IMG/VR virus record: IMGVR_UViG_2778261504_000021
Coordinates: 1 to 4,260 of that record
Origin: a virus
Taxonomy: Duplodnaviria; Heunggongvirae; Uroviricota; Caudoviricetes
DNA: 4,260 nt
Reading direction: 5' to 3' (one strand)
Part shown: positions 3,217 through 3,531 of the stretch, in pieces
Layout: each line of letters begins with the position of its first letter
Numbering within the stretch: the stretch's first letter is position 1
The notes under the pieces: model-generated
Database searches by the model: none
What the model was told of the DNA's origin: nothing
Seen by the model: only the letters and a program-made list of their open reading frames with translations
Position numbers and translations under genes: made by a program

Positions 3217-3531
3217 ATGACTCAAAACTATGAACTGATTGTGAAAGGGATCCGCAATTTTGAGAATAAAGTTACGGTAACTTTAGCGTTACGGGACAAA
3301 AAACGCTTTGACGGTGAAATTTTTGACCTGGACATCTCGCTGGACCGTGTTGAAGGTGCCGCGCTGGAGTTTTATGAGGCAGCAGCCAGAAGGAGCATCA
3401 GACAGGTCTTCCTGGATGTTGCTGCCGGGTTATGTGAAGGGGACGAGCTGTTGCCAGAAACGCGCCCCTGTTCAGAGGCGCGGTATACCATAAAAATTAA
3501 CAGTTCTGATAACTCGATTACAGGTTGTTAG
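3217..3531 (+). CDS. Hypothetical protein (104 aa) inserted between holin and endolysin; acidic, no predicted TM segment, no motif recognised
   Basis: ATG 3217 lies 4 nt after the holin stop, with GGGGAGAG 8-9 nt upstream as a strong SD. The 315-nt frame is uninterrupted. Coding is likely, function unknown. Confidence 0.55.
   Translation: MTQNYELIVKGIRNFENKVTVTLALRDKKRFDGEIFDLDISLDRVEGAALEFYEAAARRSIRQVFLDVAAGLCEGDELLPETRPCSEARYTIKINSSDNSITGC

Follow-up and report, generated by a model that had tools for sequence, protein, structure and literature searches.

The stretch of DNA analysed here, positions 1 to 4,260 of the IMG/VR virus record IMGVR_UViG_2778261504_000021 (the whole 4,260 nt being referred to below as the window), represents the late region of a prophage of the lambdoid type, similar to phage 21 and Qin. 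An open reading frame (ORF) of 315 nt at positions 3217-3531 separates its holin gene from its endolysin gene. This ORF is almost certainly a member of the YdfR/DUF1327 family, as judged from profile matches and synteny, and we are nearly certain that it is one of the mobile accessory genes in the late region of lambdoid phages from Escherichia and close relatives, frequent but not always present. It is probably not part of the lysis machinery.

The 104-aa product matches the Pfam domain DUF1327 (PF07041) over profile positions 1-90 of 93, scoring 132.8 bits where 25 are required (E 5.1e-39), and also matches the full-length PHROG 2735 (E 3.5e-55). DUF1327 is the sole Pfam match, and all five PHROG matches carry the label "unknown function". 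A first-pass annotation, made from the sequence alone, had reported no motif that it could place, and thus missed a clear family assignment. The family is named after ydfR (b1555, P76160) of the Qin cryptic prophage in Escherichia coli K-12, where the gene order is essQ-ydfR-rrrQ-rzpQ; the protein from the window is 65% identical to K-12 YdfR overall and 82% identical over residues 1-72. An identical (100%) protein is encoded by the temperate phage Perceval (OV696612). In RefSeq, the equivalent gene is called "YdfR family protein" or "DUF1327 domain-containing protein" and occurs in the order holin-YdfR-lysozyme-lysis protein.

The YdfR/DUF1327 family is a long-standing Pfam entry with an annotated member in K-12, and we do not claim the gene as new. 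The first-pass annotation had allowed that the ORF might turn out to be a conserved and already characterised component of lysis cassettes; it is conserved and catalogued, but not characterised. Our analysis adds the fixed left and variable right junction of the gene, its takeover of the ribosome-binding site of the endolysin gene, its modular tail, and its homologues in tail gene clusters.

As expected from its soluble appearance, the product is acidic, with an isoelectric point (pI) of 4.85 and a net charge of -4.5, and it has no hydrophobic or transmembrane segment (the maximum in a 19-residue Kyte-Doolittle window is 0.75). The protein is presumably cytoplasmic. Scans of the ORF with NCBIfam and PADLOC yielded no match, nor did a comparison of the ORF and four longer family members with the PADLOC defence models, or sequence and profile searches of the ORF protein against the PDB.

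Distribution of the YdfR Family

DNA related to the ORF was found in 4352 of the 5426 complete E. coli genomes (~80%), with up to 10 copies per genome. This family is thus among the commonest E. coli prophage genes. Among phage records, 101 carry the ORF, compared to 438 with an S21-type holin (about 23%). In particular, no ydfR-like gene is present between the holin gene S and the endolysin gene R in phage 21, 434, VT2-Sakai, Klebsiella phage ST846-OXA48phi9.1, and Pectobacterium ZF40, all of which have this type of holin. The early suggestion that the insert is optional cargo at the S-R junction is borne out by these absences. Judging by the 101 versus 438 records and by its absence from the prototype, the ORF is not a core component of the phage 21-type system of a pinholin and a signal-arrest-release (SAR) endolysin.

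A search of 5.8 billion proteins yielded 260 YdfR-family clusters, and an exhaustive HMMER search over 1.8 billion cluster representatives yielded 60, nearly all of them fragments or variants of the YdfR family. When one genome per species was considered for 185,579 species, DUF1327 was found only in Escherichia and in two metagenome-assembled genomes labelled Veillonella and Bacillota, which we take to be binning errors. Further family members come from Salmonella, Shigella, E. albertii, and one Yersinia rohdei. Inducible, functional phages with the gene include Perceval and mEp460, and the gene is also found in phages converting their hosts to production of Shiga toxin (Stx) 1a and 2c, with up to 10 copies in O157-type strains.

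Two kinds of candidates were discarded from these searches. The giant repeat proteins P0149 and P0159 (E 1e-9 to 1e-6), comprised of G2F, Big_9, and cadherin-like repeats, were treated as compositional matches to the VTVT strands rather than homologues. The holin-YdfR fusion entries P0002, P0005, P0047, and P0102 are frameshift artefacts and not natural fusions.

Gene Junctions and Reassortment

We compared 92 loci of Escherichia phages and prophages, retrieved from phage, prophage, and genome collections. Wherever the upstream sequence is present, the left junction is the same: the holin stop codon, 4 nt (once 3 nt), and the ATG of the YdfR gene. The window conforms to this, with the ATG following the holin stop by TTCA, as the first-pass annotation had noted. 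All loci with sufficient flanks have the order holin-YdfR-lysozyme. The right junction is variable, the gap between the YdfR gene and the endolysin gene ranging from -4 (an ATGA overlap) to +511 nt. The endolysin in the YdfR-containing loci is always of the RrrQ type and 92-100% identical.

Across the same loci, holin identity varies from 73 to 97% and the identity of the YdfR N-terminal domain from 52 to 100%. These identities do not track each other: for instance, at one locus the YdfR is 100% identical and the holin 87%, and at another the values are 73% for YdfR and 93% for the holin. Hence, holin and YdfR variants reassort freely, which may be taken as an indirect sign that the two are not a co-evolved pair.

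Two distant DUF1327 members (39% and 32% identity), the two cases that we have retrieved from outside lysis cassettes, reside in tail gene clusters, one between gpI-like and gpJ-like genes, and the other between gpM-like and gpL-like genes. Both have a strong ribosome-binding site of their own, and there is no holin gene nearby. The position of YdfR-family genes between a class II holin and a lysozyme is, therefore, typical but not obligatory, and the presence of distant homologues among tail genes suggests that the domain moves between late operons as an accessory gene and is not a partner specific to the holin. In both tail-cluster loci (L098, 3001-3506; L099, 449-1001), a small gene encoded on the other strand comes next and converges with the DUF1327 gene; its product is 74 aa and 101 aa long, respectively, with no family matches. 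This suggests that the DUF1327 gene and its small neighbour form an inserted module. By eye, the 74-aa and 101-aa proteins look unlike each other.

Takeover of the Ribosome-Binding Site and the Endolysin Leader

The Shine-Dalgarno (SD) sequence of the YdfR-like ORF, GGGGAGAG, lies inside the last codons of the holin gene. The strong SD seen at first reading is confirmed by its predicted duplex with the 3' end of 16S rRNA (-8.5 kcal/mol), which is within the best 4% of the window positions. An alignment of the junctions has demonstrated that in VT2-Sakai, which has no ydfR-like gene, R starts 4 nt after S and is served by the identical GGGGAGAG, again with -8.5 kcal/mol. In the window, the ATG of the endolysin gene (3587) yields a duplex of +0.6 kcal/mol, that is, it has no SD, and the initial description of a 55-nt spacer lacking this signal was correct. 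The endolysin gene has no SD here because the YdfR gene uses the one that serves the endolysin in cassettes without YdfR. Since the ORF holds the SD and leaves the endolysin with an SD-less leader, it is not a neutral insert with respect to the arrangement of S and R translation. This could be relevant for modelling or engineering lysis timing in such cassettes.

The last 16 nt of the spacer (3571-3586, ATCCTGATAAATATCC) constitute the conserved SD-less endolysin leader of YdfR-containing cassettes, as seen in an alignment of 89 upstream regions. Its A/T-rich core, ATAAATATC[CT]ATG, often ...CGATAAATCCTGATAAATATCCATG, precedes the endolysin start in every YdfR-containing cassette (e.g., L003, L005, L008, L009, L096). 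No significant RNA structure was found in the spacer and the endolysin leader (folding z-scores from -1.6 to +0.6), and no promoter- or terminator-like site was predicted on the plus strand at 2928-4220 by consensus scans, which are crude. We have also considered YdfR as a translational activator of the SD-less endolysin gene, and retain this only as a low-probability variant; the tail-cluster homologues have no such gene downstream.

Domain Structure and Selection

The protein is comprised of a conserved N-terminal domain of about 75 aa, which has the signature YEL...EG..LE[FY]YE.EA, and a variable C-terminal tail. Residues Y5, E6, L7, G47, Y53, E54, A57, A69, and L72 are invariant down to 32% identity. 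An AlphaFold2 model built from a 24-sequence alignment has a mean predicted local distance difference test score (pLDDT) of 76.8, with blocks mostly at 77-91 over residues 1-70. It features antiparallel strands at residues 5-14, 18-27, and 34-43, a long helix at 50-73, a disordered linker at 77-83, and, with lower confidence, a C-terminal hairpin at 92-103. A Foldseek search of this model against the PDB and BFVD produced nothing at E <= 1e-3.

Several C-terminal classes were seen among the relatives, including PETRPCSEARYTIKINSSDNSITGC of the window (class A), PEKRPVILEAQNVWITYKGKLPGRITGSLKTPP of a second class, and LQHQYSFKIENPANKHERPHHKYL of the K-12 class. Longer family members (161-287 aa) have coiled-coil-like and further domains, and the C-terminal extensions of these members match only PHROGs of unknown function. 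The window-type tail, with the motif PE.RPC.EARYTIKINSSDNSI, is also found on unrelated head domains in P0151 and P0167; a comparison of these heads with DUF1327 by hhalign yielded no relation (probability 0.8%). The occurrence of the tail on unrelated heads suggests that it is a separate, recombination-prone module. Phage relatives of one such head are found only in two Salmonella phages, and in FSL SP-016, the one whose gene context was examined, the gene is located beside a tape-measure gene (L097, 2471-2827).

An undamaged ORF was counted in 77 loci, which represent 39 distinct DNA alleles. In deep pairwise comparisons, the ratio of nonsynonymous to synonymous substitution rates (dN/dS) in the N-terminal domain is 0.22-0.30. 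In the tail, the corresponding ratio for polymorphisms (pN/pS) is about 0.10 over the 39 alleles of the 104-aa form, that is, synonymous differences are many and nonsynonymous ones are few. At shallow depth the N-terminal domain is more relaxed, with pN/pS of 0.62 among close class A alleles. As the pooled pairwise counts are not independent, these values are indications rather than tests. They indicate that both the domain and the tail are under purifying selection, and that this is a real gene and much more than a chance ORF. An untranslated, degenerate spacer with no coding signal, which had been raised as an alternative, is at odds with dN/dS and pN/pS well below 1. The term "passenger gene", also suggested then, is apt in the sense of a mobile accessory gene but not in the sense of a functionless one, given the purifying selection.

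One pair of loci in the Stx-phage DUF1327 subfamily, L003 and L005, differs over codons 1-75 by 2 synonymous and 14 nonsynonymous substitutions (dN/dS about 2), too few for significance. This hints at possible diversifying change in the N-terminal domain of that lineage.

Possible Functions

The only functional study of YdfR that we have found is that of Gopel et al. (RNA Biol 2026, PMC13232886). When RNase G served as the bait in a two-hybrid screen, a fragment comprising codons 1-72 of K-12 ydfR came up three times, and the same fragment gave a stronger signal with RNase E. Full-length K-12 YdfR gave a two-hybrid signal with residues 1-597 of RNase E, Strep-YdfR isolated from cell lysates carried FLAG-tagged RNase E 1-598 along, and DNase-resistant nucleic acid co-purified with YdfR (PMC13232886).

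By analogy with these K-12 data, we tentatively propose, as a reading that we regard as plausible but short of probable, that the protein acts on host RNA metabolism. The gene would be transcribed along with the lysis genes as part of the late operon under Q control, its translation starting from the strong SD at the end of the holin gene. Through the conserved N-terminal domain, the product would contact the N-terminal, catalytic half of RNase E (and of RNase G), perhaps with RNA as a further partner, and in the late lytic phase it would alter RNA decay or processing, for example by protecting the long late transcript. With 82% identity over residues 1-72, the interaction may carry over from the K-12 paralogue to the allele in the window. 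The "host-takeover factor" among the candidate roles listed in the first-pass annotation is somewhat strengthened by the interaction between K-12 YdfR and RNase E described in PMC13232886.

A broader and rather doubtful version of this proposal would have the YdfR family as a whole act late on RNase E in a wide range of temperate lambdoid phages. The 75-aa domain would dock on the catalytic half of RNase E or RNase G, possibly as an RNA-protein complex, and in the last minutes of infection would shield the late transcript of roughly 25 kb or redirect its decay. Swappable tails and added C-terminal domains would tune this activity, while the SD takeover would make endolysin synthesis depend on the SD-less leader. 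If the RNase E lead is true, temperate lambdoid phages would have in YdfR their first factor that binds RNase E, and this would bear on the stabilisation of late transcripts, including those extending through stx and the lysis genes.

Several observations weigh against a role in RNA decay. Overproduction of K-12 YdfR was not toxic, left growth unaffected, and changed few transcripts, and the authors allow that the co-purifying RNA could come from a contaminant (PMC13232886). As there was neither nuclease treatment nor use of purified components in that study, the contact between YdfR and RNase E could be bridged by RNA. The interaction has been shown only for the K-12 paralogue, by two-hybrid analysis and by in vivo co-purification from overproducing cells, and the K-12 data on which the lead would depend were obtained outside any phage infection. 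Finally, the pI of 4.85 is unusual for an RNA binder.

It is possible, but we think unlikely, that the gene is a moron-type accessory gene with some other target, acting in anti-defence, in superinfection or competition, or in host fitness, by late expression or leaky expression in the lysogen, RNase E binding being incidental. This would agree with the patchy presence of up to 10 copies per genome, with the extreme mosaicism of the family (swapped tails and added C-terminal domains), with related genes at other late-operon sites, and with an N-terminal domain that changes in a relaxed or diversifying manner between close alleles (pN/pS of 0.62 in class A, and 2 synonymous versus 14 nonsynonymous substitutions in the Stx-phage pair). 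Moreover, in a 2026 overexpression screen, ydfR was among the genes that raised the minimal inhibitory concentration of streptomycin 3-fold (PMC12924614). However, no PADLOC defence model matches, and the predicted lack of its own promoter and terminator implies late-only expression, a poor fit to anti-defence genes, which usually act early. An envelope-integrity screen is cited for ydfR in the RNase E paper, and ydfR is not mentioned in the main text of that screen; a Keio insertion in ydfR could act there by polarity on rrrQ.

A trans-acting regulator of lysis timing, a role already on the initial list of candidates, now seems improbable. In such a scheme, the acidic protein would bind the basic cytoplasmic C-terminal tail of the pinholin, or the SAR endolysin prior to its export, and delay or sharpen triggering in the manner of T4 RIII and P1 LydB. 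The location of the gene is suggestive, as in the 92 loci it starts 4 nt (once 3) after the stop codon of an S21-type holin gene and precedes one type of endolysin, which guarantees co-expression with the holin, and the charges are opposite (pI 9.45 for the holin and 4.85 for the YdfR-like protein). Still, phage 21, whose holin is 98.6% identical, lyses its host normally without a YdfR gene, holin and YdfR variants reassort freely, and distant DUF1327 genes reside among tail genes with no holin nearby. In addition, the protein has no transmembrane segment and no similarity to a known antiholin family in Pfam or PHROG, and its overproduction in K-12, which carries essQ, had no phenotype (PMC13232886).

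Less likely again is an effect mainly in cis, whereby the ORF, by occupying the SD-coupled slot, pushes the endolysin gene to an SD-less leader, so that less endolysin is made, or later, relative to the holin, and the protein itself matters little for lysis. Indeed, the ORF here has the SD that belongs to R in VT2-Sakai (-8.5 kcal/mol), and in all the YdfR-containing cassettes that we examined R lies behind the ATAAATATC[CT]ATG leader and lacks an SD (+0.6 kcal/mol). In addition, members of the K-12 class show an ATGA overlap between the YdfR gene and R, a classic arrangement for translational coupling. On the other hand, the purifying selection on the protein, including the tail, implies that the product itself is selected, the gap to R of -4 to +511 nt implies that coupling is not maintained, and the homologues in tail clusters cannot act in this way.

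Lastly, we give hardly any credence to a decaying, functionless passenger ORF or a degenerate spacer: the C-terminus and the downstream spacer are indeed highly variable, frameshifts or fusions affect many database entries, and K-12 does not express the gene when grown under standard conditions (PMC13232886), but dN/dS well below 1 in both domain and tail largely refutes this explanation, 77 loci with 39 different alleles have kept the ORF intact, the strong SD and the junction are conserved, and the inducible phages Perceval and mEp460 carry the gene.

Layout of the Window

The features of the window are listed in Table 1. The holin matches the Pfam family PF04971 "Bacteriophage P21 holin S" (E 1.4e-35), has a pI of 9.45, and is 98.6% identical to S21 of phage 21, for which the annotation gives both S21-71 and S21-68. 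The endolysin has a SAR-like N-terminus and, as read from the translation, the catalytic spacing E-8-D-5-T.

Table 1. Features of the 4,260-nt window and of the YdfR-family gene.
Feature	Position	Strand	Description
Q antiterminator gene	141-521
Accessory block	602-2366		Minus-strand lipoprotein-like ORF, small ORF, and YdeO/GadX-like AraC regulator
148-aa ORF	602-1048	-	Lipoprotein-type signal (MNKMTVLLLSATIISGC...)
237-aa AraC-family regulator	1653-2366	+	Between Q and the tRNA genes
Four tRNA genes	2395-2704	+	CAT, Lys-TTT, Thr-TGT, Gly-TCC; just upstream of the holin gene
Class II S21-type pinholin gene	2997-3212	+	Stop TAA 3210-3212; dual start with Met1 at 2997 and Met4 at 3006
Shine-Dalgarno GGGGAGAG of the YdfR-like ORF	3202-3209	+	Inside the last codons of the holin gene
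YdfR-family (DUF1327) gene	3217-3531	+	315 nt, 104 aa; ATG 3217, TAG 3529-3531
Conserved N-terminal domain, aa 1-75	3217-3441	+	beta-beta-beta-alpha
Variable C-terminal tail, class A (DELLPETRPCSEARYTIKINSSDNSITGC)	3442-3531	+	Disordered linker and predicted beta-hairpin
Spacer, 55 nt	3532-3586	+
RrrQ-type SAR endolysin gene (T4-lysozyme family)	3587-4120	+	Pfam PF00959, E 1.1e-24
Rz-like i-spanin gene, start only	4117-4260	+	GTG overlaps the endolysin stop; cut by the window end; RefSeq "lysis protein" at the equivalent position

The 148-aa ORF on the minus strand has no match in Pfam, NCBIfam, or PADLOC, and its location directly downstream of Q is the classic moron position. The AraC-family regulator is nearest to the acid-resistance regulators YdeO and GadX (NCBIfam E 4e-31 and 1e-24, respectively), both matches being far under the equivalog cut-offs, and resembles the prophage-encoded GAD-type regulators described in enterohaemorrhagic E. 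coli. No complete E. coli genome covers at least 80% of the whole window, hence this combination of accessory genes is uncommon.

The CAT tRNA is assigned to Met by ARAGORN, while the equivalent gene in RefSeq is tRNA-Ile. The Lys tRNA scores 44 bits, compared to 63-74 bits for the other three tRNAs. An Rfam scan of the window yielded no RNA elements other than these four tRNAs.

Two G+C-rich hairpins followed by runs of T are present on the plus strand. The one at 564-583 is right after Q, where a short terminator proximal to the late promoter is expected, and the one at 2912-2927 (GCCCGCTTTTGCGGGC and TTTTCTTTTC) is 70 nt upstream of the holin gene; Q-modified polymerase would need to read through both. 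Three Chi sites (GCTGGTGG) are found, all on the plus strand (1230-1237, 1546-1553, and 4005-4012, the last one inside the endolysin gene), compared to 0.12 expected in 4.26 kb; none of 200 shuffles reached three. Lambdoid phages rich in Chi are the topic of a 2025 paper (PMC12315714).

Comparison With Known Systems

T4 Srd, the T7 gp0.7 kinase, and phiKZ Dip are small phage-encoded proteins reported to bind RNase E. We have found no similarity of sequence or fold between the ORF protein and any of these three. The likeness to these proteins is by analogy only. T4 Srd reportedly binds the N-terminal catalytic half of RNase E, and K-12 YdfR is reported to do likewise (PMC13232886).

Similar to the genes of the antiholins T4 RI and RIII, P1 LydB, and S21-71, the YdfR gene is located next to a holin gene and co-expressed with it. 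Unlike these antiholins, its product has no membrane segment or match to their families, is dispensable for a near-identical holin, and has homologues outside lysis cassettes.

The window shares with the phage 21 cassette (S21-R21-Rz/Rz1) a holin of 98.6% identity with a dual start, a SAR-type endolysin, and spanins downstream. As the first-pass annotation correctly stated, R follows S directly in that prototype; the two genes overlap with nothing between them, and the endolysin is of another subfamily and SD-coupled to S.

The closest counterpart is K-12 YdfR of Qin, which resembles the ORF in its family, in the gene order essQ-ydfR-rrrQ-rzpQ, and in the 4-nt gap after the holin gene. It differs in the tail, LQHQYSFKIENPANKHERPHHKYL versus PETRPCSEARYTIKINSSDNSITGC of class A in the window, and in the right junction, an ATGA overlap with the lysozyme gene versus the 55-nt spacer.

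A classic moron comes with a promoter and a terminator of its own and is active in the lysogen, whereas neither element was predicted for the ORF, and its translation is tied to the SD region of the holin gene. The ORF does have the other hallmark, being an optional insert between conserved genes. Like the lambdoid morons bor and lom, or the stx and nmpC inserts between Q and S, it may be present or absent at one constant junction in a row of conserved late genes, and has relatives at other sites of the late operon.

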